Source of the DNA: a virus
Lineage: Duplodnaviria; Heunggongvirae; Uroviricota; Caudoviricetes
Length of the DNA: 35,939 nt
Reading direction: 5' to 3' (one strand)
IMG/VR virus record: IMGVR_UViG_2627853983_000005
The position numbers and the translations under genes are program-made. This document shows positions 29-29,304 of the stretch, one piece after another. Within the stretch, counting starts at the first letter, position 1; each line of letters opens with the position of its first letter. The notes under the pieces are model-generated. The model was given only the letters and a program-made list of their open reading frames with translations. It was not told the origin of the DNA and did no database searches.

Positions 29-82
29 TGGCCGTTTCTGGCCTGCATGGCATGATTTGCGCTTTTGGACGGGAGATTCAGT

Positions 83-682
83 GTGCTGATTGGCTATGTA
101 AGGGTATCAACAAATGACCAGAATACAGACCTGCAACGAAACGCTCTTGTTTGTGCAGGATGTGAACAAATATTTGAAGATAAATTAAGCGGGACAAAGA
201 CAGACCGACCGGGATTAAAACGCGCTTTAAAGCGCCTTCAAAAAGGTGACACGCTGGTTGTCTGGAAACTGGATCGCCTCGGGCGAAGCATGAAACATCT
301 GATTTCTCTCGTCGGGGAACTACGGGAGCGAGGGATTAATTTTCGCAGTCTGACCGACAGCATAGACACATCTTCTCCAATGGGGCGTTTTTTCTTCCAC
401 GTGATGGGTGCCCTGGCTGAAATGGAACGTGAATTAATTGTTGAACGTACACTGGCCGGGCTGGCGGCAGCGCGCGCAAGGGGGCGCACAGGCGGACGTC
501 GACCGAAGCTGACAAAAGAACAGCATGAGCAAATAGCAAGGCTAATCAAAAACGGGCACGACAGAAAACAACTGGCAATAATTTACGGCATTGGCACATC
601 GACGATTTATCGTTATCACCCTGTAGGCGATATACAGACTGAAGAAACAACCGGGCAGACTCAGGAAAATGAAAACCGCTAA
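83..682 (+). CDS. Serine DNA invertase, Gin/Pin/Cin/Hin family
   Basis: Translation from GTG at 83 reads MLIGYVRVSTNDQNTDLQRNAL..., with resolvase catalytic Ser motif and C-terminal HTH; closest to recalled e14 Pin. ORF track extends to a TTG at 65. Confidence 0.9.
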   Translation: MLIGYVRVSTNDQNTDLQRNALVCAGCEQIFEDKLSGTKTDRPGLKRALKRLQKGDTLVVWKLDRLGRSMKHLISLVGELRERGINFRSLTDSIDTSSPMGRFFFHVMGALAEMERELIVERTLAGLAAARARGRTGGRRPKLTKEQHEQIARLIKNGHDRKQLAIIYGIGTSTIYRYHPVGDIQTEETTGQTQENENR

Positions 683-710: not shown

Positions 711-1205
711 TCAGAACAGCCCTTTAACTGAACTGGCCGCGCTGTTAAGAGATGATGTCACCTTATCTTTGAAGCCGGACAGCATATCACTGAACGATGA
801 GGATTGCAGGCGCTCCCGCAAATCCTCATCACAGCGTTCAAGAGTCAGTGAAAATTCTATCTTTTTCGCCTTACCGTAGCGATCAAACTCGGAGCGGGTC
901 GTATTCGTTTCAGTCAGGACATACATGCCGTAAATCTGCCCGACGCCATCAATCAAAGGCCAGGGTCGTCCTGTATACGCCTGCGTGGTCAGCAGCGACA
1001 GCGACACTTCGCCACCTGTAATTTCAGGATAAAGCACACCAGAAAGAACGATGCGATCATCACCTGCACCGATATACTGCCAGCTTGCTGAACGGTTAAC
1101 GCGTTCATTTTTCACATGCCGCCAGCTTTTGTTTTGCTGTAACTGCTGATGCGGCAGCGTGCGCAGCTCAAAAACAAACATGCCGTAGATCATCATCATG
1201 GCCAT
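711..1205 (-). CDS. U: Tail protein gpU
   Basis: 164 aa, directly downstream of tape measure gene in tail operon; size and position match P2 U. Confidence 0.75.
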   Translation of the reverse strand: MAMMMIYGMFVFELRTLPHQQLQQNKSWRHVKNERVNRSASWQYIGAGDDRIVLSGVLYPEITGGEVSLSLLTTQAYTGRPWPLIDGVGQIYGMYVLTETNTTRSEFDRYGKAKKIEFSLTLERCDEDLRERLQSSSFSDMLSGFKDKVTSSLNSAASSVKGLF

Positions 1206-1211
1206 GACTCC

Positions 1212-4055
1212 TCAATCTTTATCGTAAAAACTGCCACGCCCGGCACGGGCGCGCCGTTCCATTTCTGCCCTGACCATTTCACCGACCAGTTTCGCCAGTT
1301 CGCGGGGATTCTGCGTAACAACGTTATGCAGATGAACATGAATTTCACCACCAAATCCGGAGGCAACAGGCTCCCGGTTACGGGAAGTTACAGGAACTGA
1401 TGCCACTGGAGATCGTATAGCCTCCGCCACCGGGCGGGAGCTGGCCGCAACAACAGGGACCAGCGCCGGAGGCAGCGGAGCCGGGACCACGGGTGTGATA
1501 TTAATTGCGGGGGCAGGCTTACTGACCTGCGCAATCTTCCGCTCCTGCCACTCCCCACGAACAGCAAGTGCTCGGGGCAGGTTTTTAAAGACAATATCGC
1601 CGGGGCCAATGCGTTTTTTCGTCTCCTCAACCAGCTTACCTGTGTTATCAGCAATTTTGCTGAGTCTGCGCAGCGTACCGGTATTGCTGTCTGTGAGCGG
1701 TTTATTGTCTTTGGGGTTATCACCTCCGGTGCCATTGCCATTTTCCACAGGCTTCGGCGGATTGATTTTCGCCAGGTCCCCCTGAAGCAAGGCAACCTTG
1801 TCCTGAAGAATGGCCGCACGCTGTGCGTCTTCGATTTTCTTGCGCGCCCTTTCCGCTTCATCCGGAAGCACACCAAGCTTTTCAAGTATCCACGCCAGCG
1901 TATCCAGCAACATTTTTGCAGGTGTCAGAACAAGTTGTAACGCACCGCCAAGAACGTTACCGAATATCTCGCCAGCACTGGTACATTTATCCAGAGTTTC
2001 CTTGCTGGACTCCATCGGAGACAGCAGCGATTTAAACCAGTTAAACACCTGGCTGATCCCACTCCCGATTGCGTCAAAAACAGGACCAAACCGTTCAAAG
2101 GTTTCGCGCAACGGGGTCAGCCTTTCCATAATCCCGCTGAACACCCCGGCAAAAAATGCCCTGATGGGATCCCAGTATTTCCAGATGAGAACGGCAGCTC
2201 CGGCAAGCGCAGCCACGATAAGGCCGACCGGACTGAACAACGCCCCGATAGCGCCCCCCAGTAACGAAACGGAACCCGTCACCATTCCCCATAGTGCTGG
2301 CAGGAGTCTGACAGCATTCATTGAACCGGTCAGGAGGGAAAAGCCAAGACGCAGTTTTGCCAGCGGGCCAGCAAGCACACCAATAGCCAGCGACAACGAG
2401 CCAACCGTTGCAGTCATTGCCAGCAACGCACCGCCTGCTATCAGTAGCTGGCGCGTCAGTACCGGATGGGCCTGCGCCAGCGAGGTGATTTTTTCAAGCA
2501 CCCGCGTGAGCCACTGCGTGACAGAACGCAGCGGACCGTCAACCAGATCACTGATGCGAATACGAAGACCTTCCCATGCGCTGTCGAGATTTTTCAGGTC
2601 CCCATCAAGATTATCGGCCATTACTTTTGCAACGCGATCGGCCTCTCCCCTTGCCCCCTGCAATTCTCTGGTCAGTTTTTGCAGCTCTCCTGAACCAGCC
2701 GCCGCAACAAGCGTCTGCAAACCAACGAACGCCTCTTCTCCGGCGATGTCCTTGAAGAAGGAAACCTGGTCCACCTGTCCGTATTTTTGTGTCGCCTTAT
2801 AGAGATCAAGCAGCACATCCTCCATCGGGCGCATTTTGCCTCTGGCGTCAGCAACTGACACCCCCAGCTCTTTCAGCGCATCAGCCGCAGCTTTTGGCGG
2901 TGATGCAAGGCGGGACAGACTTGCGCGCATGGCCGTACCAGCATCGCTTCCACGAAGACCATTATTGGCAAGCATCCCGGCCATGGCTGCCGCTTCTTCA
3001 AGACTGATACCAAGTTTTGCGGCAACCGGACCGGTATACTTCATGGTTTCGCCCAGCGCGCGTAAATCAGTATTGGTCCGGGTGAATGCCGCTGTCAGCG
3101 TATCGCCAACCCGGTCCATTTGATCGGCTGTCAGGTTGAACTGTGTGAGGATATTGGAGCCTATATCAGCCGTCTCGCCGAGTTCGACGCCACCTGCCAG
3201 CGCCATATTAAGAACACCGGGCAATGCGGCCTGAATGGCCTGCGGAGTAAAACCAGCCATTGCCAGAAAGCTCTGCCCACTGGCGGCATCACTCGCAGTA
3301 AACTGTGTTTCAGAGCCAAGTTTTAACGCCTGCTCACGCAGCGCCTTAAACTGCGGGCTGTTTTTGTCGATTCGCGTCAGCGCCTGAACGCGGGACATCT
3401 CTTTGCCGAACCCGATCGCGGGCTGCAAAAAACGCCCGGCAGCATAGCCGCCCGCCGCTGCCGCACCAATTGCCAGCGCACCACCTGTTTTCAGTTTTCC
3501 CGCGGTTTCCTGCGCGCGCGAATACCGCTCACGAGCCTGCGTTACACGCGCAAGCGCCTGCCGTTCGCGTTCAAGCTGGTTGTTGTATTGTTCGGTGCGT
3601 CTGATGGCCTGCTGGATGGTGTTATCGCTGCCTGTCAGGGAAATGCCGTGGCGTTTCAGTTCTCCGCCAAGCTCCCGCATTTTCTGAATTTCCCGTGTGC
3701 GCGATTCATTCAGGCGTTCAAGCCGGGTGCTTAACTGCTGCATCAGCTTTTGTTGTTTTTCGCTGAGCACTGTACCCGTGCGTTGTAACTGATTAAGGGC
3801 GTTAAGCTGGCGTCGTGCTTTCACGATACCCGCATCCGCTTTACTGACAGCGTCGCGGGCGCGCTCAAATGAACGCGCCTGACGCTCGAGATTTTTGATC
3901 GCCCCCTGCGTTCGCTGAATGGAGTCACCAAACTGCCCCATCAGGCGGCGGGCGTTTTCGGCAGGCCGGGTCAGCCTGTCAACGGCGCTGAAAGCGACCC
4001 GGATGTCAAGAGTCTTCATTATCTGCATTCCCGCTGCGAAGTGCCGCCCGCTCAC
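1212..4055 (-). CDS. T: Tail tape measure protein gpT
   Basis: 947-aa ORF, coiled-coil N-terminal half, Gly/Ala-rich hydrophobic central segment, follows E/E'. True start may be an internal Met near 4019-4028. Confidence 0.85.
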   Translation of the reverse strand: MSGRHFAAGMQIMKTLDIRVAFSAVDRLTRPAENARRLMGQFGDSIQRTQGAIKNLERQARSFERARDAVSKADAGIVKARRQLNALNQLQRTGTVLSEKQQKLMQQLSTRLERLNESRTREIQKMRELGGELKRHGISLTGSDNTIQQAIRRTEQYNNQLERERQALARVTQARERYSRAQETAGKLKTGGALAIGAAAAGGYAAGRFLQPAIGFGKEMSRVQALTRIDKNSPQFKALREQALKLGSETQFTASDAASGQSFLAMAGFTPQAIQAALPGVLNMALAGGVELGETADIGSNILTQFNLTADQMDRVGDTLTAAFTRTNTDLRALGETMKYTGPVAAKLGISLEEAAAMAGMLANNGLRGSDAGTAMRASLSRLASPPKAAADALKELGVSVADARGKMRPMEDVLLDLYKATQKYGQVDQVSFFKDIAGEEAFVGLQTLVAAAGSGELQKLTRELQGARGEADRVAKVMADNLDGDLKNLDSAWEGLRIRISDLVDGPLRSVTQWLTRVLEKITSLAQAHPVLTRQLLIAGGALLAMTATVGSLSLAIGVLAGPLAKLRLGFSLLTGSMNAVRLLPALWGMVTGSVSLLGGAIGALFSPVGLIVAALAGAAVLIWKYWDPIRAFFAGVFSGIMERLTPLRETFERFGPVFDAIGSGISQVFNWFKSLLSPMESSKETLDKCTSAGEIFGNVLGGALQLVLTPAKMLLDTLAWILEKLGVLPDEAERARKKIEDAQRAAILQDKVALLQGDLAKINPPKPVENGNGTGGDNPKDNKPLTDSNTGTLRRLSKIADNTGKLVEETKKRIGPGDIVFKNLPRALAVRGEWQERKIAQVSKPAPAINITPVVPAPLPPALVPVVAASSRPVAEAIRSPVASVPVTSRNREPVASGFGGEIHVHLHNVVTQNPRELAKLVGEMVRAEMERRARAGRGSFYDKD

Positions 4056-4274
4056 GCCAGCTAACCACTTCGCCGGGCGTCATCATGAAGATTTCGGCGG
4101 GCGACCAGTTGAAAATGGCGGCAATATCCGCCACCAGATCTTCGATGTGCTCAAAGCACACCAGGGTGATTACGCTGCCGTCTCCTGCACGCTCTTCGCG
4201 CCAGAGTCTGGCTCGCTCATAAAATTTACAGCCACAGCGCACAACTGAATAAAATCGCGTGACGACATTTTTTT
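4006..4274 (-). CDS. E' extension reached by programmed -1 frameshift (gpE+E' product)
   Basis: A AAA AAA run at 4268-4274 (minus strand) near E codon 91; the -1 frame is open from there to the stop at 4006. Confidence 0.5.
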
Positions 4275-4544
4275 AATCATCACTTCATCCAGTCGTGGCG
4301 AGGTCACGCGAGGCAACAGCGTGAACATGGTATCCGCTTTCAGATTCAGCACATCAGACAGCGACAGACCACGCAGGGATCCCGCCTGCTCAATAGCCCC
4401 GGTGATCTCCACATATGTGATTTTTTCGGCACCACGCTCAATTGGCCGGGAAAGTTTTACACCACGTTCGACAGCCATATCCTCACCTGACGTCACATCA
4501 TCCGCTACGGTGTTATTCCGGGTTTCAGTATCGATATCTTTCAT
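4170..4544 (-). CDS. E: Tail assembly chaperone gpE
   Basis: ORF starting MKDIDTETRNN between tail tube and tape measure genes; contains A7 slippery run near codon 91. Confidence 0.7.
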   Translation of the reverse strand: MKDIDTETRNNTVADDVTSGEDMAVERGVKLSRPIERGAEKITYVEITGAIEQAGSLRGLSLSDVLNLKADTMFTLLPRVTSPRLDEVMIKKMSSRDFIQLCAVAVNFMSEPDSGAKSVQETAA

Positions 4545-4599
4545 CAGTTGTCTCCTTTTCAGTCAGAGGCGACGCACTGCGCCGCCTGCATATTACTTA

Positions 4600-5112
4600 T
4601 CAGCCAAGCCCAAGCGCGGAACGAATGCGGTCAGGCACAATGTCCTTGCCGTCCTTCCGGTAGATGTGGTTCAACAGGTCGATTTCCCACAGCGGGCGAT
4701 CGTTAACGCTCAGCTTGTAGTAGGTGTTTTTGACAGCGTAAGTGTGTGATGTGGCTTCGCCCTGTTTGGCCTCCCCCATATCAATTTCCGTCACACGCCC
4801 GCGCATCTCGATTTCATACAGATCGCTTTCTGCATCGGTGTAATATTCACCCGCAAAACGCAGCAGCGTGCCGTCAATCGTGCCGCCATACTTAAGGAAC
4901 AGTGCACGAACAGCTCCCCCCATGACAAAGCTCGCATCAAGCGCGGAGTCGTCCAGACCGAGATCAATACTTACTGCTCCCATCATGCCACCACCACGAT
5001 AGCTGTCGGTTTTGCGCGTCAGTTTGGGCGGCGTGACGGATGTCACTTTACCCACTTCGTTTTCACCATCCACAAACAACGTAAAAAAGCGAAGATGTTT
5101 TGGTACAGCCAT
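4600..5112 (-). CDS. FII: Tail tube protein FII
   Basis: 170 aa, immediately downstream of sheath gene; size and position as P2 FII. Confidence 0.85.
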   Translation of the reverse strand: MAVPKHLRFFTLFVDGENEVGKVTSVTPPKLTRKTDSYRGGGMMGAVSIDLGLDDSALDASFVMGGAVRALFLKYGGTIDGTLLRFAGEYYTDAESDLYEIEMRGRVTEIDMGEAKQGEATSHTYAVKNTYYKLSVNDRPLWEIDLLNHIYRKDGKDIVPDRIRSALGLG

Positions 5113-6296
5113 CAGGCACCTCCCAGCACCGCAAATGCGGGACCAAAGAATTCATCAGTAAACGTCTGGTAAAGCTCCATGTCTTCCAGCGGGGGAACGG
5201 GCGTATATTTGTAGCGAATACGCACACGCCCCTGACGTAAATCCGTGGTGCCGTTATCCACCACGTCATACCAGCACTCCGCGCCAATCAGTTTCCCGGC
5301 AGTAACCAGCGAATCCAATTTTGCCCTGATGGCACTGATAACATCCTTCACGTTCGCAGGCGTCAGTGGACTGTCGATGGTTTCAAACTGCGCTTCCGCA
5401 ATTGAATCAGCCAGCACCTGTGCGGTTCGGGTATACACCTCAAAGATGTAGGCGTTCGTTTCCGGTGTGCGGTTGCCCCAGAAGCGGAACCCGTTACGAC
5501 GAATAATGGTCGTGATTTCTTTGTTGTTGAGGCTGTTGGCATCACTGTCTTCGGCCTGTAACGACCAGAACACATGCCTCGACATCCCCAGCACATTTTT
5601 AACCGGAACGTTGGACAGCGATTTGTGCCAGCCCTGCTCATGGTCAATGTACGCACGAAGGCCGCACGCATAAGCAGGCGCGGGGAACGTTTCGTTTTTG
5701 CCACTTTTCGGGTTGTAGGCGATGAAGTCAGGCCATAAGAGCATCACCTCACGTTCGTTGAATTTCTGGCGGTAGGTAATCGCCTCAGCCATCGTGTTAC
5801 AACCATGACATGTGGCATACACAAACGCGCGCAGTTTACCCGCAATCACGCACAGGGATTTTGTCACCGCCTCCGTGTCCAGCTCCGGCGCGGCCAGAAT
5901 ACGCGGACGGTATCCGATGCTTTCATCCTGCTCTGCAACAAGCAGCGCATACATCCCCGTATAGCTGCCGTCAGATTCAGAACCACCGATAACCAGTTGA
6001 TCCTGCGTCCTACCGCCTTCTTCTTTGTGTTCAGCCACGCGAACGACGATCACTTTTGTGCTCACCTGGTCTGCGATAGCCTTAAGCGCACGATAAAGCG
6101 TCCCCGTAGTCCCGCATTTTCCCAGCACGTCATTGACGCGGGTCAGCAGTGTGGGCTTGTTCAGCGGGAACAGCTCCGCATCCGCATCATCCGCCGTTGC
6201 CACGATACCGATAACGCTGGAATCAACATCATTAATCGCTGTTACCAGGTCGGTACTTTCCGTGACACGGGCACCATGAAAACGAGTTTCACTCAT
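5112..6296 (-). CDS. FI: Contractile tail sheath protein FI
   Basis: 394 aa with conserved sheath motifs (KLRAF, AYRQ, EQGWHK, LIRRNGFRFWGNRT, TPVPPLE) recalled from P2 FI. Confidence 0.9.
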   Translation of the reverse strand: MSETRFHGARVTESTDLVTAINDVDSSVIGIVATADDADAELFPLNKPTLLTRVNDVLGKCGTTGTLYRALKAIADQVSTKVIVVRVAEHKEEGGRTQDQLVIGGSESDGSYTGMYALLVAEQDESIGYRPRILAAPELDTEAVTKSLCVIAGKLRAFVYATCHGCNTMAEAITYRQKFNEREVMLLWPDFIAYNPKSGKNETFPAPAYACGLRAYIDHEQGWHKSLSNVPVKNVLGMSRHVFWSLQAEDSDANSLNNKEITTIIRRNGFRFWGNRTPETNAYIFEVYTRTAQVLADSIAEAQFETIDSPLTPANVKDVISAIRAKLDSLVTAGKLIGAECWYDVVDNGTTDLRQGRVRIRYKYTPVPPLEDMELYQTFTDEFFGPAFAVLGGA

Positions 6297-6453
6297 AGCT
6301 TCAGCCCCTTGTATCCGTTAAATGATTCGGCAACAATCATCACCCACCACGCGCGTAATCTCACCCCTGCGCCGTTCTCCCGCCACGGCGACAACAAAAA
6401 GCAGTAACCCCCTCCGCACGCACATGCGACCATGCCGCACAGGGAGGGAGCAG

Positions 6454-7563
6454 ATGACCGACACCACCATGCAATTGCTCAGTCAGGGCACAGACCCCGT
6501 GAAAATGCCGGATTTTGATATTCTCGCGGAGGGTAAAACGCTGTCAGGCGTGGCAGAGCGCCTGATGAGCCTGTCACTGACCGACAACCGGGGATTTGAG
6601 GCGGACCAGCTCACCATCACGCTGGATGATGCGGATGGTCAGTTGCAGCTACCGCCACGGGGCGCGCGCCTGACGGTTCTCATTGGCTGGAAAGGAGAAC
6701 CGCTGACAGAAAAAGGCACTTACATTGTTGATGAAATCGCTCACGAAGGACCGCCGGACAGGCTGACTGTTTCAGCCAGAAGCGCAGATTTTCGGGATGA
6801 ATTTAACGTTAAACGTGAGGTGTCCTGGCATGATGTGACCGTTGAGCGTGTGGTATCCGCCATCGCTCATCGGTATGGTCTGAAACCGCAAATCAGCGAA
6901 ATGCTGATGGATATCGAAATCGACCACGCCGACCAGACCGAAGAAAGCGACATGTCCTTCCTTACGCGCATGGCGGAAATGCTGGGCGCAATCACCACGG
7001 TAAAAAGCGGTAATCTGTTATTCATCATGCCCGGCGGTGGCGTGAACGCACAGGGCCAGCCGTTGCCATCGTTTGCCATCACACGCAGCAGCGGCGATCG
7101 CCATCAGTTCCGCATTGCTGACCGCGAAGCGTATACGGGGGTACGCGCTTACTGGCTTGATCTTAATTACGGGAAAAAGAAAAAAGTCAGCGTGAAACGC
7201 CGTAAACCGCCAAAACCCAAAAAGGAGAAAAGCAGCAGCCGCGAAGGTGATTATATGGAAGGCGCGGAAGGCAATGTGTTTGTGTTACGCAAGACTTATC
7301 AGAACGAGCAGGCAGCAAGACGCGCAGCGGCGGCAAAGTGGCAGCAACTACAACGCGGAGCCGCATCATTCTCCATCACGCTGGCGCGTGGACGTGCAGA
7401 ACTCTACCCCGAAATGCATGGCACGGTAACAGGATTTAAAAGCGAGATTGATAATCAGGACTGGATCATTGCAAAAGCCGAGCACACCATTGATAACAGC
7501 GGTTTTACCACGCAGCTTGAGCTTGAGGCAAAAATCCCGGAATGGATAGCGGAAACAGAGTGA
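6454..7563 (+). CDS. D: Tail/baseplate hub protein gpD (gp27/VgrG-like)
   Basis: ATG at 6454 with GGAGGGAG RBS; 369 aa; immediately upstream of ogr as in P2. ORF track start 6322 lacks an RBS. Confidence 0.85.
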   Translation: MTDTTMQLLSQGTDPVKMPDFDILAEGKTLSGVAERLMSLSLTDNRGFEADQLTITLDDADGQLQLPPRGARLTVLIGWKGEPLTEKGTYIVDEIAHEGPPDRLTVSARSADFRDEFNVKREVSWHDVTVERVVSAIAHRYGLKPQISEMLMDIEIDHADQTEESDMSFLTRMAEMLGAITTVKSGNLLFIMPGGGVNAQGQPLPSFAITRSSGDRHQFRIADREAYTGVRAYWLDLNYGKKKKVSVKRRKPPKPKKEKSSSREGDYMEGAEGNVFVLRKTYQNEQAARRAAAAKWQQLQRGAASFSITLARGRAELYPEMHGTVTGFKSEIDNQDWIIAKAEHTIDNSGFTTQLELEAKIPEWIAETE

Positions 7564-7603
7564 GCAACTTAGAATAGGCAGCACCACGTTAAGGGAGGTC
7601 GCT

Positions 7604-7864
7604 ATGTTCCGTTGTCCGCTTTGTGGCGCATCTGCCCGTATCCGCACCAGTCGTCCGGAAAATGATTCAAACACCGTGCGGCAAAAGTATTACCAGTGTA
7701 ACAATCTGGAATGCGGCGTATGCTTCTCAACACTGGAAGCTTTCCATAAATTCACATCAAAACACGCCTCCGGCGTTCACTCTTCAGAAGGTATCCCGTG
7801 GCATGATCTGCCAGCTTCACACAGGGGAAACAATCAGATGAGTTTGCCTTTATCTCAGAATTAA
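7604..7864 (+). CDS. ogr: Late gene transcriptional activator, Ogr/Delta zinc-finger family
   Basis: MFRCPLCGASARIRTS...YYQCNNLECGVCF: C-x2-C ... C-x4-C zinc finger; position after D as in P2. Confidence 0.85.
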   Translation: MFRCPLCGASARIRTSRPENDSNTVRQKYYQCNNLECGVCFSTLEAFHKFTSKHASGVHSSEGIPWHDLPASHRGNNQMSLPLSQN

Positions 7865-7952
7865 CAGGCAGAATTGCCGGAGTAACAAAAAAGCGATAGA
7901 TTACGTGCGGGTGCCTTTCGGCTGATGGTCGGAGGGAATACCCGAAGGCCAG

Positions 7953-8138
7953 ATGTGGAAAGGCCCCGAGTCAACTTTAACGTTAACCCGAGGCCCTAAC
8001 CATCTACCCTCAGCAAGTGATAGGTTAGCGCCTCCCCGAAAAAGGAGCAAGCGCTATGTCGCAAAAATCGCTTACGGCCATCACATTCTGCGTGACGGCA
8101 ATCCTCATCATCTGGATGCTGCACGGTTCGCTGTGTGA
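7953..8138 (+). CDS. mok-like overlapping reading frame of hok locus (tentative)
   Basis: 61-codon ORF starting upstream of and overlapping hok in another frame, as mok does in hok/sok loci. Confidence 0.3.
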   Translation: MWKGPESTLTLTRGPNHLPSASDRLAPPRKRSKRYVAKIAYGHHILRDGNPHHLDAARFAV

Positions 8139-8196
8139 AATACGGATGAGTTTCTGGGGAGCGGAGTTTGCGGCGTTCTTACAGTGTAAGCAGTAA
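8056..8196 (+). CDS. hok: Hok/Gef-family type I toxin (small membrane peptide)
   Basis: 46 aa MSQKSLTAITFCVTAILIIWMLHGSLCEIRMSFWGAEFAAFLQCKQ: N-terminal TM helix, SLCEIR and AAF motifs of Hok/Gef; AAGGAG RBS 8 nt upstream; below ORF-track size cut-off. Confidence 0.75.
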   Translation: MSQKSLTAITFCVTAILIIWMLHGSLCEIRMSFWGAEFAAFLQCKQ

Positions 8197-8289
8197 GGAA
8201 ACCGCGACGGGGAAGGCAACTTCCCCGTCAATCGGTTGCCAGGGTAAAGGTCGAAAAGGCACCCTATTTCCAGTTGACGTGAACAACAA

Positions 8290-8322
8290 GCCCGCAGCGT
8301 AAAAACTGCGGGTTTTCTTTTT
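8290..8322 (+). terminator. Rho-independent terminator ending hok/ogr transcript
   Basis: Stem GCCCGCAG/CTGCGGGT with 8-nt loop followed by TTTCTTTTT. Confidence 0.6.
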
Positions 8323-8356
8323 GGTTCCCTCACTCATGAGGACACCAAAAAACAAA

Positions 8357-8385
8357 GCCCACAGCATAGAAGCTGTGGGCTTTTT
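8357..8385. terminator. Second hairpin terminator, bidirectional
   Basis: 9-bp stem GCCCACAGC/GCTGTGGGC followed by TTTTT; A-run on the other side. Confidence 0.55.
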
Positions 8386-8395
8386 GCATTCAAAG

Positions 8396-8590
8396 ATGGA
8401 CGTTATATGGACACTTAAAAATAAAATCCATTTATTTTCAAATGATTAAACCTCTACTTAAAGCGCCCGCAGGCGCTTTAACGTTTCTTGCCCCTCCTGA
8501 TGATTTACTTATTTTTCAACGAATAAGCCAAAACAGGGGGAACAAATTAACACAAATTATAACTAATCGATGGACAGTTTATGGACACTT
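8396..8590. other. Putative attP region with Int arm-type direct repeats
   Basis: ATGGACGTTATATGGACACTT (8396-8416) and ATGGACAGTTTATGGACACTT (8570-8590) flank an AT-rich stretch and a GCGCC hairpin (8460-8479); lies at int 3' end where P2 attP sits. Confidence 0.4.
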
Positions 8591-9570
8591 TCAGCCAGCG
8601 GATTAAAGTTGATCGCGTCCAGTAAAAAGTCCGGCGAAAAATGAGCGTACGTCATTGTTTGCTGAATCGTTGCGTGCCCCAGGATTCGTTGCAACGTAAC
8701 AATATTTCCGCCATTCATCATAAAGTGTGTGGCAAATGTATGACGCATGACATGCGTAGCCTGCCCCTTCGGCAAATCCGGTTTCACCTCCTGAAGAATC
8801 TCCCGGAACTTCAGATAATCAACCTGATACAATAACCCCGTTCGACGGGTTTTAATCAGAGGCACGACCGAATCCGCCACAGGAACCGAACGGGATTTTC
8901 CGTTTTTGGTGTTAAAGAACGTCACCCGGTTGCCAACGATATGCTCTCCACGTAGTTCCGATGCTTCACTCCATCGGGCACCAGTAGAAAGACACAGAAT
9001 GGCAACACGACGCACATCACCCTCCAGTCGCTCAAGAAGCCGTTCAATCTCATCATCAGAAAGAAAGGCCATCTCTGTGTTCTGAACTTTCAGTTTTCGT
9101 ATACCGCGTACAGGGTTCGCGTTGTGAAAGACCTCAGCTTCAATCAGCACCGTGAACATGGTAGACAGTACGCATAAGTCACGATTAATACTGGACGGCA
9201 TTAATCCGGCCTGTAATTTCTCTGACCGATATTCAAGCATAAATTTTCGCGTCATCTGACTGGCGCGAGGATCTCCCATTTCACGAACAACCTTCCCTAG
9301 CCTAACCCTGTAGCTATCCCCGTAAGCCTGATTACGCCCATCAAGCATCCACCACGCATCAAGCAGCTCTGATAATCGCCGCTGATCAGCTGGCTTAGCC
9401 TGCCATGGCTTGTCATGAAAGTTCTGTAACACATACTTCTCAAACTCCTGAGCCTTTGATTTCAGGGCAAAGATTTTTCGAATCCGCTTTCCTTCCGCCC
9501 CCTGCGGTCTGACATCGACCTGATAACGTCCGTCTTTGAGTTGCTTAATCGACATGATTAGCCCCTCCAA
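8563..9570 (-). CDS. int: Tyrosine integrase, P2-type
   Basis: 335 aa with C-terminal catalytic region (...ATHVMRHTFATHF...LGHATIQQTMTYAH); adjacent to C repressor as in P2. Confidence 0.9.
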   Translation of the reverse strand: MEGLIMSIKQLKDGRYQVDVRPQGAEGKRIRKIFALKSKAQEFEKYVLQNFHDKPWQAKPADQRRLSELLDAWWMLDGRNQAYGDSYRVRLGKVVREMGDPRASQMTRKFMLEYRSEKLQAGLMPSSINRDLCVLSTMFTVLIEAEVFHNANPVRGIRKLKVQNTEMAFLSDDEIERLLERLEGDVRRVAILCLSTGARWSEASELRGEHIVGNRVTFFNTKNGKSRSVPVADSVVPLIKTRRTGLLYQVDYLKFREILQEVKPDLPKGQATHVMRHTFATHFMMNGGNIVTLQRILGHATIQQTMTYAHFSPDFLLDAINFNPLAESVHKLSID

Positions 9571-9624: not shown

Positions 9625-9966
9625 TCAGCCAACATTGCGGCCTGATCGGGGTGATTTTTGGGTAATACCGATTGAAACCTGATCGCCCTCCGACTGAATA
9701 GATCCATCAAGAGAGAGAGCCGGAGCAATCTGCCCGGCGACAGGTAGCGTCTTATCTTTTATTAGCCACAGCATGTATTTTTCAAAGCGATCGACTTGCA
9801 GAACCGCCTCAACGATTTTTGCTCTAGCGTTCTTTTGCCCCGATTCGTAATTCCTTATGGTTGCCAAAGACAACCCAGTAATATCCGCAAACTGCTTTTG
9901 TGTTAACCCTTCCGCCTTACGTATCTGACGTAACTTTTTTGCGTAGTCTATTGACAAGATAACCAT
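9625..9966 (-). CDS. C: Immunity repressor C (HTH)
   Basis: HTH ...LTQKQFADITGLSLATIRNYESGQ and QIAPAL motif resembling recalled P2 C; start taken at ATG 9966 (ORF track uses TTG at 10020). Confidence 0.8.
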   Translation of the reverse strand: MVILSIDYAKKLRQIRKAEGLTQKQFADITGLSLATIRNYESGQKNARAKIVEAVLQVDRFEKYMLWLIKDKTLPVAGQIAPALSLDGSIQSEGDQVSIGITQKSPRSGRNVG

Positions 9967-10011: not shown

Positions 10012-10070
10012 ACAAGCCAAAACAAACCATCACAAGGCGCGACAAGCGCACCAACGCAAGAGGATAACAA

Positions 10071-10592
10071 ATGCGGGACTTCATTGCCGATAAAGAGTTA
10101 TCTGACCACCAACCACTTCAGGAAAGTGACGCACTCAGCGGATCCATTGATGCCGCCAACGACGACGAGCACGAAGAAAACAAGAAAAAGCGTTCCTACA
10201 AAAAAGGAGCGACTTTGCGGCTGGATGGTCCGATCGCCGGGCTTTGCTCTCTGGAAAAAGGCGCGGCATATATTGGGCTAACAAAATCTGCACTGCGCGT
10301 AGCCATTCATCGCGGTCAAATGCCGGGACACAAGACGCGCACAAACCCGGAAGATGAAAACTCAGACGGAGTATGGTGGTTTAACGCCAAAGAGTGGGAC
10401 AAGTTGGCTGATGAGCTACCAGAGCACGAGCCCCCAGAATGGCACAACTGGAAAAGTTACTGGACGTATGACCGCCAGAAAAGGAAGTTCTCTCCAGCTA
10501 ATAAAGAAGACTGCCAGACCATTAACGGTAAGCGAGTTTATACAGGCAGAAGCTCAAAACTGGACCAACTCAGAAACAACAGAGGCAACTAA
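10071..10592 (+). CDS. Cox/Apl-like early regulator, putative excisionase
   Basis: First gene of rightward early operon, facing C; central HTH-like segment AAYIGLTKSALRVAIHRGQMPG; acidic N-terminus. Alternative TTG start at 10215 with AAGGAG RBS. Confidence 0.5.
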   Translation: MRDFIADKELSDHQPLQESDALSGSIDAANDDEHEENKKKRSYKKGATLRLDGPIAGLCSLEKGAAYIGLTKSALRVAIHRGQMPGHKTRTNPEDENSDGVWWFNAKEWDKLADELPEHEPPEWHNWKSYWTYDRQKRKFSPANKEDCQTINGKRVYTGRSSKLDQLRNNRGN

Positions 10593-11217: not shown

Positions 11218-11354
11218 GAAAACCTCTTAACAATTTAATTAAACATAAGCCAGGACCTGAACCGGCCAGTCCAAGTCCTAGACACACAAAAAAAATACCA
11301 CAAATCAATACAAGGTGACACGAGTACACCTTACCGAAGGTACAGAGTTTTAAT

Positions 11355-14645: not shown

Positions 14646-17468
14646 ATGACGGCAGAGTACCTCAGGGACTGGCAACAACCGCGCCACGCAGTGGGGCGTG
14701 AAGGAACGGGGATCCCCGCTCCTGAATCCGCGCTTTCCTCCTGGCTGGATGCCTACCGGGCAGAGAACGAGCGCCGCCAGGAAATGGCTGATGCGGCGTT
14801 CTCAGCCACGCCGCTGGGCAACCTGATTAATAAAAGCCTGGACGCACAGGAAAAACAGGACAAAACCATCACACTGGCAGGAGACGCCAGAAAACAGGCA
14901 CGTGGCGCGGTGGATGAAGCCATGGCCTCGCTGCGCCTGCTGCCGTCCTATCTGCGCGATCCGCTTATTCGCCACCTCTCCTTCCTGCGCAAAAAACAGG
15001 AAGCCGATCGCCGGAAAGGCAAAAAGAGCTGGCAGGCGGAACGCTATGCACGCGGAACCCTGCGCAAAATATTCGAACGTCTGGATAGCACTGACGGACG
15101 CTGGCTGACACCGGGTTATCGCTCCCTTGCCGGACGCGAACGCCTGGACGATTTGCTTTACCTGCCGCAGCTCAACAAACACCAGATACAGACGCTGGCC
15201 ACCATGACGGCGGCGATGTTCAGCAGCACCTTCGAAAAACTCTGCGATGGCTTTGGCGCGACCGATGGCGAGCTGACCATGGATGTAACCCTGAAGGCGT
15301 ATCAGATGCTGGCCCGCATGGCGTTACACCTGCACGCCATGCCTCCACATTATGACGCACTGACAACAGACAAAGACCGGAGGAACGAACCGGACACGGA
15401 GCTGCTGCCGGGCGCAATCCTTCGCCTGACCTGTGCGGAATGGTGGAAACGCAAACTGTGGCTGTTACGTTGCGAGTGGAGAGAAGAACAACTCCGCGCC
15501 GCCTGTCTGGTTTCCAGAAAAACATCACCCTATCTGAGCCAGGACGCGTTAAGCGAGTTTCGCGCACAGCGCGAGAAAACACGCGATTTCCTGAAAAGTT
15601 TCATGCTGGAAAATGAAGACGGGTTCACGATTGATCTCGAGACAGTGTATTACGCGGGAGTAAGTAACCCGGTTCACCGTAAGGCAGAAATGATGGCCAC
15701 CATGAAGGGACTGGAACTTCTGGCCGAAGCCCGTGGCGACAAAGCGGTGTTTCTGACTGTCACCTGCCCGTCAAAATACCACGCCACAACGGAGAACGGT
15801 CATCCGAATCCCAAATGGAACGGGGCCACAATGCGCGACTCCAGCGATTACCTGGTTAACACGTTTTTTGCGGCGGTCCGCAAAAAACTGAACCGCGACG
15901 GCCTGCGCTGGTATGGCATCCGCACGGTGGAGCCTCATCATGACGGCACCGTGCACTGGCATATGATGGTCTTTGCACATCCGGAAGAAATCGACACCAT
16001 TGTGTCCCATACCCGCGATATTGCCATTCAGGAAGACCGCCACGAGCTGGGCAATGATATTACTCCGCGCTTTAAGGTGGAGTATGTCGACGGCTCAAAA
16101 GGCACGCCAACCAGCTACATCGCCACCTACATCGGAAAGAACCTGGACAGCCGCGCCGTGGATGGCATCGACCCGAAAACGGGCAAGCCACGCGTGGACC
16201 ACGAAACCGGAAAATCAATGGCCGAGAGCGTGGAGCGCGCCATCGGCTGGGCGCGCCTTCACCGGGTCCGTCAGTTCCAGTTCTTTGGCATCCCCTCCCG
16301 TCAGGTGTGGCGTGAACTGCGCCGCCTTGCCAGCCAGATGGCACGCAATCCGGAAGGCCCGCAACGGCTGAAAGATGATGCAATGGATGCGGTACTCGCT
16401 GCCGCCGATGCCGGGTGTTTTGCCACCTACATTGAAAAACAGGGTGGCGTGCTTGTTCCACGCAAGGACTACCTGATTCGCACCGCCTACGACCTCGCAG
16501 ATGAGCTGAACGATTACGGCGAACAGAGCGTACAGATTTACGGGATCTGGTCACCACTCATCGGGGAATCCTCCCGTGTGTGCACGCATCCGGATAACTG
16601 GAAGCTGGTAAGACGTAAACCGGAAGCGGAAGACAGCGCCCGCGAAAATGGTTTTGACCTTCAGGGCGGCCCTGCCGCCCCTTGGACTCGTGGCAATAAC
16701 TGTCCCCGTGTACAGGAAACGGACAACAACGGGACAGAACAGCCGGAAGAACGGCCAGCACCGTGGCCGCAGCTCCCTGACGGCGTTGAAGTGAACGAAT
16801 GGATGCGCTCACTGAAACGACACGAACGCCGGGCGCTGATGCGTTCGCTTCGTGACAAACAGGCAAAAAACAGCAGCGATGAAATGCAGAGCTGGACACA
16901 GAGCCGCAAACAGCAGCGGCCTTTGCCTGATAACCACGAATTACTCGCTAAAGAATGGCGGGAGTCTGCTGAATCTCTCGGCCTGCATATCGGTGAACAA
17001 CAGATGCAGCACCTGTTACGGGGCGGCAGTCTGTACGTTGACGGCAGCATCATTGCACCGCAGGGATTTGAAATTGTACGCAAACCGGATACCCGCCCGG
17101 ACAGCCGAATCACGCAGCTCTGGCAGCGCCTGAGCCGTAATCATGGCGTAAGCAGCACGGAGATCCGCCATAACCCGGTCGCCAGCTATCTGGCACAGCT
17201 GGGGGCATCAGACCCTGAAGCCGCCGCACGCCTGGCATCCACACTTCAGCAGGGCCAGAACACCATGAAAACACCCGTTACCGTGCTTTCTGACATGCTG
17301 CGCGCCATCCGCGACGCAGAGCACGCACAGAGAATCAGTGAAACCACTGAACGCGCCAGCCGCAAAGCAGACCTGCTGCGGGGTGGCCTGACCAGTGGAA
17401 ACAAAAAACAGACAGAAACGGGACTTACGAATCCCGTAAATGAGCAAAAAACGCGCAGCGATATATGA
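14646..17468 (+). CDS. A: Rolling-circle replication initiator gpA (HUH endonuclease)
   Basis: HUH motif HHDGTVHWHMMVFAHP and paired-Tyr motif TSYIATYIGKN; 940 aa, about 180 aa longer than recalled P2 A at the C-terminus. Confidence 0.9.
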   Translation: MTAEYLRDWQQPRHAVGREGTGIPAPESALSSWLDAYRAENERRQEMADAAFSATPLGNLINKSLDAQEKQDKTITLAGDARKQARGAVDEAMASLRLLPSYLRDPLIRHLSFLRKKQEADRRKGKKSWQAERYARGTLRKIFERLDSTDGRWLTPGYRSLAGRERLDDLLYLPQLNKHQIQTLATMTAAMFSSTFEKLCDGFGATDGELTMDVTLKAYQMLARMALHLHAMPPHYDALTTDKDRRNEPDTELLPGAILRLTCAEWWKRKLWLLRCEWREEQLRAACLVSRKTSPYLSQDALSEFRAQREKTRDFLKSFMLENEDGFTIDLETVYYAGVSNPVHRKAEMMATMKGLELLAEARGDKAVFLTVTCPSKYHATTENGHPNPKWNGATMRDSSDYLVNTFFAAVRKKLNRDGLRWYGIRTVEPHHDGTVHWHMMVFAHPEEIDTIVSHTRDIAIQEDRHELGNDITPRFKVEYVDGSKGTPTSYIATYIGKNLDSRAVDGIDPKTGKPRVDHETGKSMAESVERAIGWARLHRVRQFQFFGIPSRQVWRELRRLASQMARNPEGPQRLKDDAMDAVLAAADAGCFATYIEKQGGVLVPRKDYLIRTAYDLADELNDYGEQSVQIYGIWSPLIGESSRVCTHPDNWKLVRRKPEAEDSARENGFDLQGGPAAPWTRGNNCPRVQETDNNGTEQPEERPAPWPQLPDGVEVNEWMRSLKRHERRALMRSLRDKQAKNSSDEMQSWTQSRKQQRPLPDNHELLAKEWRESAESLGLHIGEQQMQHLLRGGSLYVDGSIIAPQGFEIVRKPDTRPDSRITQLWQRLSRNHGVSSTEIRHNPVASYLAQLGASDPEAAARLASTLQQGQNTMKTPVTVLSDMLRAIRDAEHAQRISETTERASRKADLLRGGLTSGNKKQTETGLTNPVNEQKTRSDI

Positions 17469-17544: not shown

Positions 17545-18504
17545 ATGAAAATTTGTATCGACGACGGCTCCACCAACATCAAGCTGGCATGGACTGAGAA
17601 TGGCGAACGCCGCAACGCCATCAGCCCGAACAGCTTCAAGTCGGAATGGTCTGCGCCGTTCGGTGGCATGCAGCCCGCGAACTACATGCTTGATGGCGTG
17701 CGCTATGGTTTTGATCCGGTTAGCGATCGCTTTGTCCAGACGACCGACACGCAATACCAGTACAGCGATGTGAATGTAATCGCCATTCATCACGCGCTGG
17801 TCAAATCAGGCATCACGCCACAGGAGGTGGATGTGGTTGTCACCCTGCCACTGAGCGAGTATTTCGACACAAACGCACAGCCGGACATGGCCAACATCAA
17901 CCGCAAAAAAGCGAACGTTATGCGCCCGGTGGAATACCAGAACGGCGAAGCATTCACTATCCGTAACGTGCGGGTTATGCCTGAATCCATTCCGGCTGGC
18001 TTTAAAGCACTGGCTGACATGAGTCCGTTTGAATCCCTGCTGATTGTGGATTTAGGCGGAACCACGCTGGATGTGGCAAAGGTTCAAGGGCAACTGGCAG
18101 GTATCAGCCAGGTGTTTTGCGATCCACACGTAGGCGTTTCCCTGATGGCCGATGCCGTACTGTCGGTGATGGCCACTAACGGTATGCGCACCAGTCACCA
18201 CATCGCCAATACCATTATCGAACATCGCCATGATGAAGCCTGGCTGCGCCAGCACATCCACAATGACGCGCATTACGCCAGCCTGATGGCGGTTATTCGT
18301 GAAAAGGAAGAAACACTGAAACAACGCGTGATCCGCGCGCTGGCGGTTTTTTCGGGTTACGGGCGGGTGATGGTTGTCGGTGGAGGGGCGGAGATTGTGG
18401 CACCCGCTATCCGCGAAGTCTGCGGAGTTAATGCGACTTTCATCGCGGACGGGGTGCCACAGTTTGCTCTGGTTAATGGGCTGTACGCAATGGACAAGGA
18501 GTAA
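17545..18504 (+). CDS. parM: Actin-like segregation ATPase, ParM/StbA family
   Basis: N-terminus MKICIDDGSTNIKLAW...ISPNSFKSEW...YQYSDVNVIAIHHAL matches recalled R1 ParM/StbA phosphate-binding motifs; 319 aa. Confidence 0.9.
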   Translation: MKICIDDGSTNIKLAWTENGERRNAISPNSFKSEWSAPFGGMQPANYMLDGVRYGFDPVSDRFVQTTDTQYQYSDVNVIAIHHALVKSGITPQEVDVVVTLPLSEYFDTNAQPDMANINRKKANVMRPVEYQNGEAFTIRNVRVMPESIPAGFKALADMSPFESLLIVDLGGTTLDVAKVQGQLAGISQVFCDPHVGVSLMADAVLSVMATNGMRTSHHIANTIIEHRHDEAWLRQHIHNDAHYASLMAVIREKEETLKQRVIRALAVFSGYGRVMVVGGGAEIVAPAIREVCGVNATFIADGVPQFALVNGLYAMDKE

Positions 18505-18508
18505 ACCA

Positions 18509-18823
18509 ATGACGACACCAACCAGACGGATAAGTTTCTATCTGAAGCCCGCCGCCGTCAAGAGTGAACAGGAGGCGTGCAATTACCTCGATAGCCTGCC
18601 AGCCTCCGAACGCAGCCGCGCGCAACGCGCGGCCTTTCTGGCTGGGCTAGCGCTCATAAAGCGCAACCCAGCATTTGCCTACTGGATGGCCGAATGGCCA
18701 GAGGACAACCTCCCCTTCAATACCGTTAGCATCAAGGAAACATACCAGGATAATCAGCCTAGCGGAGTTGAATGCAATTTTTATAAAATAAAAAAGAATA
18801 TTCAGACCTTATTCCCAGAATAA
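18509..18823 (+). CDS. parR: ParR/StbB-like centromere-binding adaptor
   Basis: AAGGAG RBS; RRISFYLKP...LDSLPASERSRAQRAAFLAGLALIK resembles recalled R1 ParR ribbon-helix-helix N-terminus; directly downstream of parM. Confidence 0.8.
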   Translation: MTTPTRRISFYLKPAAVKSEQEACNYLDSLPASERSRAQRAAFLAGLALIKRNPAFAYWMAEWPEDNLPFNTVSIKETYQDNQPSGVECNFYKIKKNIQTLFPE

Positions 18824-20326: not shown

Positions 20327-21009
20327 CTCATTAGAGGTCAACGTAGCTTAGAAACCATCAAATTCATCATACATTTTTTTCATATCAACCCCCTCATAGA
20401 AATCATAACCACGTTTTGTGGTTTTTGTGACGTATAAACTACATCAAAGGCAAGCCACGGTCAAATATATAGGCATGCTTACCTGCACAAAAGTGCACAA
20501 ATTTGCACAATTTTTTTGAACGACTTTTTACCCTTCCGGCCCGCATGGCGGCTGGATCCGTCAAGGATCCGTGCGTGCACAAAAAAACGCGCTTTTTCTG
20601 CGCGCAGGTGACGGGGGAACAGCCCGCGTTTCAGGGGGTAAATAGCATTCCCTGAACGATGTCGCAGAGACACAACAGAATGGCCATATTTCTCACGCTG
20701 AGCATGAAAAAGGCGTGAGGGCTTTTGATTTGATGGGGTGAAAGGTAAGGCCGTCAAAATCGCACTGAGGCAGCGAGAACATGCAGTCAACGCGGTGGAA
20801 TTGCGTAAGAGTCTGACCGTCGATGGTGGCGATAAACTGGAAGGCGTCGTGAAATTATCTGATTGATACAGGAGCTGGAGAGCCGGGGCATAAATTTTTT
20901 ATGCCCCGGCGAAGCAGCAGACAAGCGAAGCGCGTCAGCGATACGGCACCTTGCCGACCATACTTCATAAGTGCAAAATACGAGCAAAGAAATCAATGGA
21001 GGCTGTCTT

Positions 21010-22595: not shown

Positions 22596-24346
22596 CAGAA
22601 CTCCATAACCATGAAACGCTCGTTTTCTCCTTCGCCGCCAATTGGTTCGTTAATGACAGCAAGCATGGTTGCCCACGCAAGGTCGCCGTGGCTGATCCCC
22701 CTCGCGCGGTCCGTTTCGTAAGTGATAAAGCCGCCCGGTGTTTTCACCTTACGCACGGCGTTAAAGGCCGCGACCAGCTCGCGTTCGGCGCGATCGTATT
22801 CCCACCGCCCGGCACGCATTATTTGCAGCATTTTCAGTACCAGCGACCGTTTTGATGACAGCGTGAAGGTGTACGGAATAGCAGCAGGGAAAAACCGCTT
22901 CACTATCTGATAAACAGCCTCCCCGTTCCCGCCCGTCACATCAATGCCGATGTGTTCCACGTTGTAGCGACACGTGAACTCTTCAATGACTCTGGCCTGT
23001 TCTTCAAACTCCAGCCCCTGAACGCGTCGCGTCTCCACCGTTCGAAAACGGCCGCCAGGAACAGCCGGAGGAACCACCACGGACACAGCGCCGCTGTCGC
23101 CGTTGCCACTACTGCCGTTTGCGTCATACCCAATCCATACCGGACGATTCCCCATCGGGCGGGGAGCAAAAGGTTTCCAGTCTTTCCAGTCGTCGTATCC
23201 GTCAACACCGCAGCCAATCAGGATATTCAGGTTAAATGCCGATTCCCCTTCGCGGACAAACTCACACATATAGAGATTGAGGAACTCGTCTTCGGTGTTT
23301 TCATCACGAATTTCGTCGATATCGGTGTGTTTCCAGCCGTGATTAACCACATCTTCCAGCGTGACAATTTGCCGCCACGTCCGGTCAGGGCAGATAAGCC
23401 CATTATGCAGCGTTTTCCAGTCCACAGAAAAACGCTGGCGTTTATGCGAGGCCTTTTTCTCGTTCCAGCGGTCGCCGTTCCAGTAGGCGTATGCCTCGTG
23501 CGTTTCGGTGGATGGCGTGGAGAAGTAGGTGCGCCGCAGTCCGCTGAGGGTTGCCATAGCGCCAGCCACCTTGCGCAGTTCAGCAAAGCGACTGACCCAG
23601 AAAAATTCATCAAAATAAAAATTGCCCGTATAGGACTGTGCCGACGCAGCAGAAGTGCCGAGAAAATGCAGCTCTGCGCCGTTGGAGAGGATGATTTTAT
23701 CGCCCCCTTTCAGCTCCACATCAACTTCAGCCGCGGCCTTCTGAATAATGCTTTTAAACTGGAACGCCTGACGACGCGACGCAGACAAAAAAATCTGGTT
23801 ACGCTGGTAAGGTTGCGCCACATCGTCACGCAGCGCCATCAGCAGTGCTTCCTGTGCAAAATACCAGGTCGCCCCAATCTGTCGGGATTTCAGGATCATC
23901 CTGTTACGTATCCCGGCTTCCCTGCAAAGGGTCAGGGAGTCAAACCAGCCCCGCTGATGCCACTCCAGCCTGCTGATGATTTTTTCCCGCAGTGCGGCAA
24001 TCTGTTCCGGCGTGAAATGATTTTTGAGTTTTTTCGCCCGGCCTTTCTTTCCTGCGGCCATCACATCCGGCTGGCCATCATGCAGCTTTTTAAGCTGCCG
24101 GGTCAGCAGGTCTATTTCCTTAAAGTCACCGCCTGTTTTATTCTGTTTTTCAGTAAGCTGGATGAGGCGCGCATCGATGGACTGCGTGACACGCTGCACG
24201 GGTGGCGTTTCATCCCACTGGTCACGTTTTTTCCACGCATAAATCGTGTTCGGGTTTATTCCCATCAGACGTGATATTTCTGCGGGCGGATAACCCTGCC
24301 AGTAAAGTTGCCGCGCACGCTGGCGCACAAAAGCGTCCTGAATCAT
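22595..24346 (-). CDS. P: Terminase large (ATPase) subunit gpP
   Basis: 583 aa; N-terminal HTH; Q-P pair divergent from O as in P2. Confidence 0.9.
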   Translation of the reverse strand: MIQDAFVRQRARQLYWQGYPPAEISRLMGINPNTIYAWKKRDQWDETPPVQRVTQSIDARLIQLTEKQNKTGGDFKEIDLLTRQLKKLHDGQPDVMAAGKKGRAKKLKNHFTPEQIAALREKIISRLEWHQRGWFDSLTLCREAGIRNRMILKSRQIGATWYFAQEALLMALRDDVAQPYQRNQIFLSASRRQAFQFKSIIQKAAAEVDVELKGGDKIILSNGAELHFLGTSAASAQSYTGNFYFDEFFWVSRFAELRKVAGAMATLSGLRRTYFSTPSTETHEAYAYWNGDRWNEKKASHKRQRFSVDWKTLHNGLICPDRTWRQIVTLEDVVNHGWKHTDIDEIRDENTEDEFLNLYMCEFVREGESAFNLNILIGCGVDGYDDWKDWKPFAPRPMGNRPVWIGYDANGSSGNGDSGAVSVVVPPAVPGGRFRTVETRRVQGLEFEEQARVIEEFTCRYNVEHIGIDVTGGNGEAVYQIVKRFFPAAIPYTFTLSSKRSLVLKMLQIMRAGRWEYDRAERELVAAFNAVRKVKTPGGFITYETDRARGISHGDLAWATMLAVINEPIGGEGENERFMVMEF

Positions 24347-24500
24347 TGCTCCCCCTGAGTAATTACAGGAAGATTACCCGCGCGCGAAACTGTTCTCCTT
24401 AACCCTCTGTTCTGACTGTTTTCTTACAACAAAAGCCCTTTGTATCAGCCTGTTACGCTTTGCCATCATGACTGAAGAACCAGTCAGAGGGGCAAAAACT

Positions 24501-29162: not shown

Positions 29163-29304
29163 CCCACCCACATGGGGAAACCTCGGAATATGGGGCGACC
29201 GCCTTCTGGATGCACTGGAAACCTGTAACGCGGATAAACGGGCCATTGCTGAACTGGATAAGAGAATAGCCGAACTGACACACCAGACGGGAGTAACACA
29301 ATGA
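29023..29304 (+). CDS. o-spanin lipoprotein (Rz1/LysC-like)
   Basis: Lipobox LLTGC after signal peptide; Pro-rich; embedded in +1 frame of i-spanin. Confidence 0.6.
   Translation: MNAPTLCLTLVLLTGCAGTQNAPGPAPSVRLIPQTLTMPVTPPPFPDPPTWGNLGIWGDRLLDALETCNADKRAIAELDKRIAELTHQTGVTQ

Follow-up and report, generated by a model that had tools for sequence, protein, structure and literature searches.

The attachment region of a P2-like temperate phage of Escherichia coli and its site between serS and dmsA

Genes and features around the attachment region

The DNA analyzed in this work (hereinafter "the window") is the whole stretch of 35,939 nucleotides corresponding to IMG/VR virus record IMGVR_UViG_2627853983_000005. 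As in P2, its attachment region has ogr as the left boundary gene and extends from there to the 3' end of int, which is transcribed leftward. The stop codons of ogr (7864) and int (8563) are 699 bp apart, in agreement with the distance of 700 bp given by the first-pass annotation. The features relevant to the following discussion, with their positions in the window and their strand, are:

65-682 (+): serine invertase gene (Pfam Resolvase and HTH_7)
7604-7864 (+): ogr, late-gene activator (Pfam Ogr_Delta, E=5e-14), in the position of P2 ogr
8056-8196 (+): hok, small toxin of the Hok/Gef family, 46 aa (HOK_GEF, PF01848)
8354-8383 (bidirectional, no strand): terminator-like hairpin, the 12-bp stem of which stands between an A-run and a T-run, directly before the P arm
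8395-8416 (+): P arm, two direct ATGGAC(R) motifs, GATGGACGTTATATGGACACTT, predicted site for the Int N-terminal domain
8419-8452 (+): predicted AT-rich IHF-type bending segment, with the element TTTCAAATGATTA at 8436-8448
8460-8479 (+): common core AAAGCGCCCGCAGGCGCTTT, 20 bp, identical in attP, attB, attL and attR
8523-8565 (+): candidate Cox boxes ATAAGCC, ACAGGGG, ACAAATT, ACAAATT and ACTA, in about 10-bp phase, including AATAAGCC
8569-8590 (+): P' arm, two direct ATGGAC motifs, GATGGACAGTTTATGGACACTT, inside the last nine int codons (…ESVHKLSID-stop)
8563-9555 (-): int, P2-type heterobivalent tyrosine integrase, 330 aa (Pfam Int_N and Phage_integrase)
9625-9966 (-): C-type repressor (HTH)
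10012, 10022, 10032 and 10042 (+, start positions): ACAAGCC, ACAAACC, ACAAGGC and ACAAGCG, in exact 10-bp phase just upstream of cox
10071-10592 (+): cox, DNA-binding protein of the Cox family, 173 aa (Pfam Phage_Cox, PF10743, E=1.9e-7, above the curated cutoff)

The homology of the two recombination proteins was established computationally. The integrase is 51% identical to P2 Int over the full length, starting from residue 1 (E=3e-132), and carries Y11, D14 and R16, as does P2 Int. According to Nilsson, Cardoso-Palacios and Haggård-Ljungquist (2011; PMC3448106), three N-terminal residues of Int (alignment positions 16, 19 and 21) separate P2-type from 186-type arm binding; by our own matching of the two numberings, Y11, D14 and R16 would correspond to these positions. 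The product of cox, predicted to be the excision directionality factor, is 173 aa long, whereas P2 Cox has 91 residues.

In the interval from ogr to the P arm, the window has two additions with respect to P2, a hok/sok-like module and one more terminator. The module (type I toxin-antitoxin, 7909-8196, +) is located between ogr and attP, and with about 85% identity its segment matches a region present in many Stx phages. The sok-like RNA match (7909-8069) reached 42.8 bits, under the Rfam gathering score of 59; at the attachment site itself the Rfam search returned no RNA family, the only matches being this sub-threshold sok and a spurious miRNA. Two terminator-like hairpins (8288-8316 and 8354-8383), 67 bp apart and 79% identical, are located between hok and the P arm and jointly make a 39-nt imperfect inverted repeat (8284-8322/8348-8386). 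The second one occupies the place of the P2 ogr terminator, which ends 4 nt before the P2 P arm.

Some other traits of the genome can be mentioned. The tail block (711-6296, -), which runs from sheath through tube, tape measure and gpU and is followed by gpD and ogr (6322-7864, +), is inverted with respect to the P2 order (FI FII E T U D ogr on a single strand), and the same arrangement is shared by the prophage of strain EC958 and by the plasmid copy described below. Directly 3' of replication gene A (14646-17468) there is an R1-type plasmid partition module (17545-18823, +), comprising ParM (319 aa; PF06406/PF21523) and a StbB-like protein (PF10784), which is not a usual cargo of P2-like phages. 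Between the lysis and the tail genes (29301-31178, +) there is the gene, probably an accessory or cargo one, of a 625-aa protein in which the domains DUF1737, SASA (sialate O-acetylesterase-like) and DUF6645 were recognized. The P2 cos sequence had no match in the window, even allowing up to three mismatches.

Common core, host site and prophage junctions

The hairpin noticed between the two repeats is an inverted repeat, AAAGCGCC-CGCA-GGCGCTTT, at 8460-8479, which extends to 10+10 bp at 8458-8481. The position of the core, the host site and the attL and attR junctions were obtained computationally from the comparison with E. coli chromosomes. In ST131 and other E. coli chromosomes, the segment 8200-8479 has a 100% match at the serS-proximal end of a prophage, and the segment 8460-8700 has a 100% match at its dmsA-proximal (int) end. 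The two halves of the region are thus found at the opposite ends of a 38.7-kb prophage in hundreds of E. coli chromosomes, with at least 248 records matching the int-side junction at 99% identity or more; when 8250-8700 was compared with complete E. coli genomes, no single place covered the whole query. In EC958 the serS-side junction reads ...CCTCTACTT-AAAGCGCCCGCAGGCGCTTT-TTAGATTC... and the dmsA-side junction ...GAGACAAAAA-AAGCGCCCGCAGGCGCTTT-AACGTTTC... Since only 8460-8479 is common to attP and to both prophage junctions, this segment represents the core shared by attP and attB. In the lysogens the P arm remains at the serS-side end of the prophage, and the P' arm is found with int at the dmsA-side end.

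A synthetic empty attB, composed of the two host flanks and the core, was searched in the complete genomes of E. coli and was found with 100% identity in strain SK1144; the serS-dmsA site is uninterrupted in 5,075 of the 5,426 complete genomes. The exact Int protein is listed in 14,023 collection blocks, and at every locus returned dmsA is placed immediately downstream of int, i.e., in the integrated arrangement. The core of attB begins 23 nt past the serS stop codon, precedes seven consecutive T and folds as a stable hairpin; judging from its sequence, it is the stem-loop of the intrinsic terminator of host serS. The attB hairpin escaped a simple terminator scan, which draws the stem into the T-run. 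A fragment of a tRNA or tmRNA gene as the core found no counterpart, no gene of either type being present in the window.

On the basis of these sequences, strand exchange must occur within the 20-bp core. The core is a nearly perfect palindrome and, as the central CGCA is its sole asymmetric part, CGCA must set the orientation of recombination. It can also be observed that in the lysogens the terminator tails are swapped, serS being followed by the hairpin and TTTAAG, and int by the hairpin and the host TTTTTTT upstream of dmsA (read at 2860-2900 and 41520-41560 of the EC958 locus, L003; window 8458-8481). This exchange may affect serS read-through and insulate dmsA.

The site is not new. PMC3448106 lists the prophage PhiECO5 of E. 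coli UTI89 at 911187-948481, and in the UTI89 chromosome (NC_007946) this interval starts just past serS and stops just before dmsA, the published end coordinates falling mid-way in the two core copies of the prophage. No substitution was found between PhiECO5 and the window at the 44 arm and 20 core positions, and a single one is present in the P-side spacer, whereas 12 of the 89 positions of the core-to-P' spacer differ. The two phages share the same gene order, with hok and ogr on one side and cox, C and int on the other; however, the accessions of their C and Cox proteins differ, and PhiECO5 is known only in the integrated form (attL and attR), whereas the window has the joined attP. Hence, on the strength of the published coordinates, the site, core and arm repeats of the window appear to be already catalogued as the PhiECO5 site. 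P2 itself has its chromosomal attB at a map position other than the serS terminator, according to PMC3448106. A literature search on serS/dmsA prophages found nothing specific.

Source DNA and physical state of the sequenced attP

Both ends of the window are formed by a 19-nt inverted repeat, AGTTCTCGTAAACCGAGGT, at 1-19 and, as its reverse complement, at 35921-35939. The completeness of the phage was evaluated against EC958 by end-mapping and length arithmetic. The two ends map to positions 11350 and 14069 of the EC958 prophage locus, and the 2,718 bp between them embed tail-fibre and assembly genes next to the serine invertase; judging from EC958, this invertible tail-fibre segment is missing from the window. 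Measured from core to core, the EC958 prophage has 38,677 bp; subtraction of one 20-bp core leaves 38,657 bp, which is exactly the sum of 35,939 and 2,718 bp. Apart from the invertible segment, the window thus comprises the entire phage, closed through attP and free of host DNA, and the contig ends are assembly breaks at the inverted repeat and invertible segment, not ends of a DNA molecule. This correspondence to the base also indicates that attP is truly intact, and it bears out two statements of the first-pass annotation, namely that the region has no host junction and that it is the unrecombined form of attP; indeed, the halves that are 38.7 kb apart in lysogens are joined here.

A joined attP might derive from a free circle, from virion DNA with joined ends, from a tandem lysogen or from a captured circle, all of which are possible. 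That it came from a context other than a virion or an episome, i.e., from a tandem double lysogen or from a circle captured in a larger replicon, appears to us unlikely, even though it has some arguments on its side. A tandem double lysogen regenerates attP between its two copies. Moreover, the same intact attP was found in a single public record, that of the IncC plasmid pC-Ec2-KPC of E. coli Ec-2Lar (NZ_MK439959.1), identical at 451 of 451 nt over 8250-8700, in which IS26 copies bound and split the phage blocks (6890-24736, locus L018); this organization suggests that IS26 captured an excised phage circle on the plasmid. The exact attP junction, searched as a 44-mer and as a 24-mer, gave zero matches in IMG/VR viral contigs, JGI metagenome contigs and GTDB representative genomes, and no joined attP was found among the phage records or complete E. 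coli chromosomes searched; also the fact that the window ends are assembly breakpoints fits this idea. On the other hand, the window contains neither IS26 nor host DNA, its length together with the missing segment equals that of the whole phage, as a closed circle would give, and the short-read assembly of a tandem lysogen would be expected to branch at the core.

A more specific proposal is that the phage can persist as a circular episome that is actively partitioned and keeps its attP unrecombined, i.e., as a P2-type "phage-plasmid", and that the window is the sequence of such an episome. The ParM/StbB module, the closed circle without host junction and the attP form captured by IS26 make this proposal compatible with the data, but we consider it quite improbable.

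Architecture compared with P2 and proposed recombination

Whatever its physical source, the segment 8395-8590 very probably represents the attP, in its complete form, of an E. coli temperate phage of the P2-like group (Peduoviridae). The comparison with P2 attP that had been proposed in the first-pass annotation was carried out using RefSeq NC_001895, where attP (24293-24496) is annotated with P arm, IHF, core, Cox and P' arm. The corresponding segments are:

P arm (Int): P2 24293-24320, window 8389-8418
IHF: P2 24324-24357, window 8422-8455
Core: P2 24356-24383, window 8454-8481
Cox: P2 24399-24472, window 8497-8570
P' arm (Int): P2 24470-24496, window 8568-8594

This computational alignment revealed that the two regions are collinear, the paired repeats of the window falling exactly at the annotated P2 Int arm sites P and P'. 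There is no net length difference between the arms, the start-to-start spacing of which is 174 bp in both phages; each side has two direct 8-bp arm repeats, 11 bp apart and all in the same orientation; in both cases the P' arm (20 of 27 positions identical) is contained in the final codons of int, and the AT-rich IHF-type block on the P side is closely similar. Conversely, only 11 of 28 positions are identical in the core, which is the 20-bp near-palindrome AAAGCGCCCGCAGGCGCTTT in the window and the 27-bp AAAAAATAAGCCCGTGTAAGGGAGATT in P2, and 23 of 74 in the Cox region, as expected for different integration and Cox specificities. The arm repeats themselves carry ATGGAC in the window and GTGGAC in P2. 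An alignment including 11W, YpM46, SEN4, fiAA91-ss and P2, whose integrases are 49-56% identical to that of the window, revealed that the cores of these phages are unrelated and that each of them is surrounded by paired repeats of the GTCCA type, present on either side, and by a conserved AAATAAAAGGATTTATTTC block. The ogr/int layout, the arms, the duplicated core and the P2-type Int all support the initial description of this region as attP-like and allow it to be specified as a P2-type attP.

As regards the arms, the repeats ATGGACGTTATATGGACACTT (8396-8416) and ATGGACAGTTTATGGACACTT (8570-8590), read from the sequence, share one more G, and therefore the two direct repeats that had been described as 21-bp elements flanking an AT-rich segment and a hairpin do so as 22-nt copies (8395-8416 and 8569-8590) identical at 19 of 22 positions. 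ATGGAC occurs twice in each copy, 11 bp apart (8396/8407 and 8570/8581). None of 150 shuffles of 8200-8700 gave a 22-mer direct match above 17/22. In the 35.9-kb window the two arms are the only places where the pattern ATGGAC-N5-ATGGACAC is found, and with up to two mismatches 0.28 matches would be expected; RTGGAC alone is found 23 times on both strands, against 31.7 expected, and four of these 23 constitute the two pairs with 11-bp spacing. The P2-type arm consensus is given as tgTGGaCa in PMC3448106, and TATGGACA agrees with it at seven of eight positions.

One might argue that recombination does not use these repeats as signals, the right copy being kept as the code for the Int C-terminus and the left one being a chance or regulatory element. 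In favor of this view, the P' copy lies within the terminal int codons, the encoded ESVH is a C-terminal motif of P2 Int too, and a weak promoter-like match overlaps 8582-8609. However, the left copy is non-coding and yet conserves the sequence of the right one, both copies are at the base-exact positions of the annotated P2 arm sites with the same spacing, the same pair surrounds unrelated cores in five other phages, and the pattern counts and shuffles make the chance expectation negligible. The paired repeats are not due to chance, and their lack of a role in recombination is, in our opinion, highly improbable.

The bending site is a candidate suggested by its position and by its similarity to the P2 site. 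The element TTTCAAATGATTA has one mismatch to the IHF consensus WATCAANNNNTTR, and the P2 element TTTCAATTTATTG, which is located inside the region annotated as IHF binding site, has the same mismatch; one-mismatch matches to this consensus are at chance level across the window (27 against 27.4 expected). The block AAATAAATCC..TTTATTTC around the element is kept in six P2-type phages.

The 186-type attP belongs to the same family (Peduoviridae) and has the same general layout, but its arm repeats are tgccGCCActt and its attB is a tRNA gene, whereas the attB of the window is the putative serS terminator. The 186-type repeats were not found flanking the core (about 8300-8700) and, given also the lack of tRNA genes in the window and the P2-type Int residues, an assignment to this type was rejected. 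The attP of phage lambda follows the same logic, in that one integrase bridges arm-type and core-type sites with a host bending protein in between, and its excision factor has its binding site between the core and one of the arms, as proposed for the window phage. However, the number, arrangement and consensus of the lambda arm sites are different and Xis is unrelated in sequence to Cox; the site of the window is not a member of the lambda family.

A last point concerns the AATAAGCC motif, which the first-pass annotation had placed at 8520-8527 and compared with the P2 attP core. The motif is actually two bases to the right, at 8522-8529, and the octamer is indeed part of the P2 core AAAAAATAAGCCCGTGTAAGGGAGATT, but it is not the core here. 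The idea that this motif (near 8520-8529) is the attP core, prompted by such likeness, has practically no chance of being correct and is ruled out by the attL and attR sequences, in that the prophage junctions break at 8460/8479, at least 43 bp to the left of it, the motif is wholly on the int side in attR, the P2 core aligns collinearly to 8454-8481 and not to about 8522, and PhiECO5 of UTI89, with the same attB, has AATAAACC in its place; the core is the hairpin at 8460-8479.

It is more likely that AATAAGCC belongs to an array of Cox-type boxes, an idea of moderate strength. Such candidate boxes start at 8523, 8533, 8542, 8552 and 8562, and fall within the window equivalent (8497-8570) of the annotated Cox binding region of P2. 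The 11-mer AAGCCAAAACA at 8525-8535 has a second copy between C and cox, at 10014-10024; a shared sequence of this length was reached in 2 of 1000 shuffles, and its probability by chance is about 0.2-2%. We propose that the boxes at 10012-10048, which match those of attP, might be the Cox operator at the C/cox switch. The P2 RefSeq has the promoter Pc at the equivalent position just upstream of cox, and in P2 the Cox boxes overlap Pc (PMC3936717). In the window, six ACAA triplets at 10-bp phase were found against 0.25 expected, and none of the tetranucleotide cores of the boxes is substituted in UTI89, despite the differences in the core-to-P' spacer. The P2 Cox box consensus TTAAAG(G/C)NCA is absent from this spacer. 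Further ACAA arrays in 10-bp phase, which enter into the six counted together with those of attP and of the C-cox switch, are present at 11290-11323 (+), upstream of a DUF4761 gene (11355), and at 20484-20510 (+), where TGCACAA is repeated three times in a large non-coding region before the portal gene. Their existence implies that the motif is not exclusive to attP and to the C-cox switch, and another protein could read them.

Based on these data, a scheme can be proposed in which all the protein-DNA contacts are drawn by analogy with P2 and the cleavage positions are inferred. Int would use its N-terminal domains to occupy the ATGGAC motifs, of which each arm has two, and its core-binding and catalytic domains to contact the inverted half-sites AAAGCGCC and GGCGCTTT around CGCA at 8460-8479, with IHF bending the AT-rich P-side spacer at about 8436-8448. 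In the interval between serS and dmsA, the resulting intasome would recombine with the identical 20 bp that form the terminator stem-loop of serS, placing ogr and hok beside serS and int beside dmsA. Cox, bound to the phased boxes (8523-8565) between the core and the P' arm, would probably direct excision.

Overall, this is an ordinary and already known system, i.e., a P2-type attP at the PhiECO5 site, and the current understanding of P2-type site-specific recombination is unchanged. The analysis fixes the anatomy of attP (arms, candidate IHF block, 20-bp core and probable Cox boxes) and its attB, and corrects the assignment of the core. An orthogonal tool for integration could be derived from the small 20-bp attB and the P2-type Int. 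Of minor interest is the use as a core of what appears to be an entire, almost perfectly palindromic terminator hairpin. The prophage concerned is found in the pandemic ST131 lineage and in related ones.
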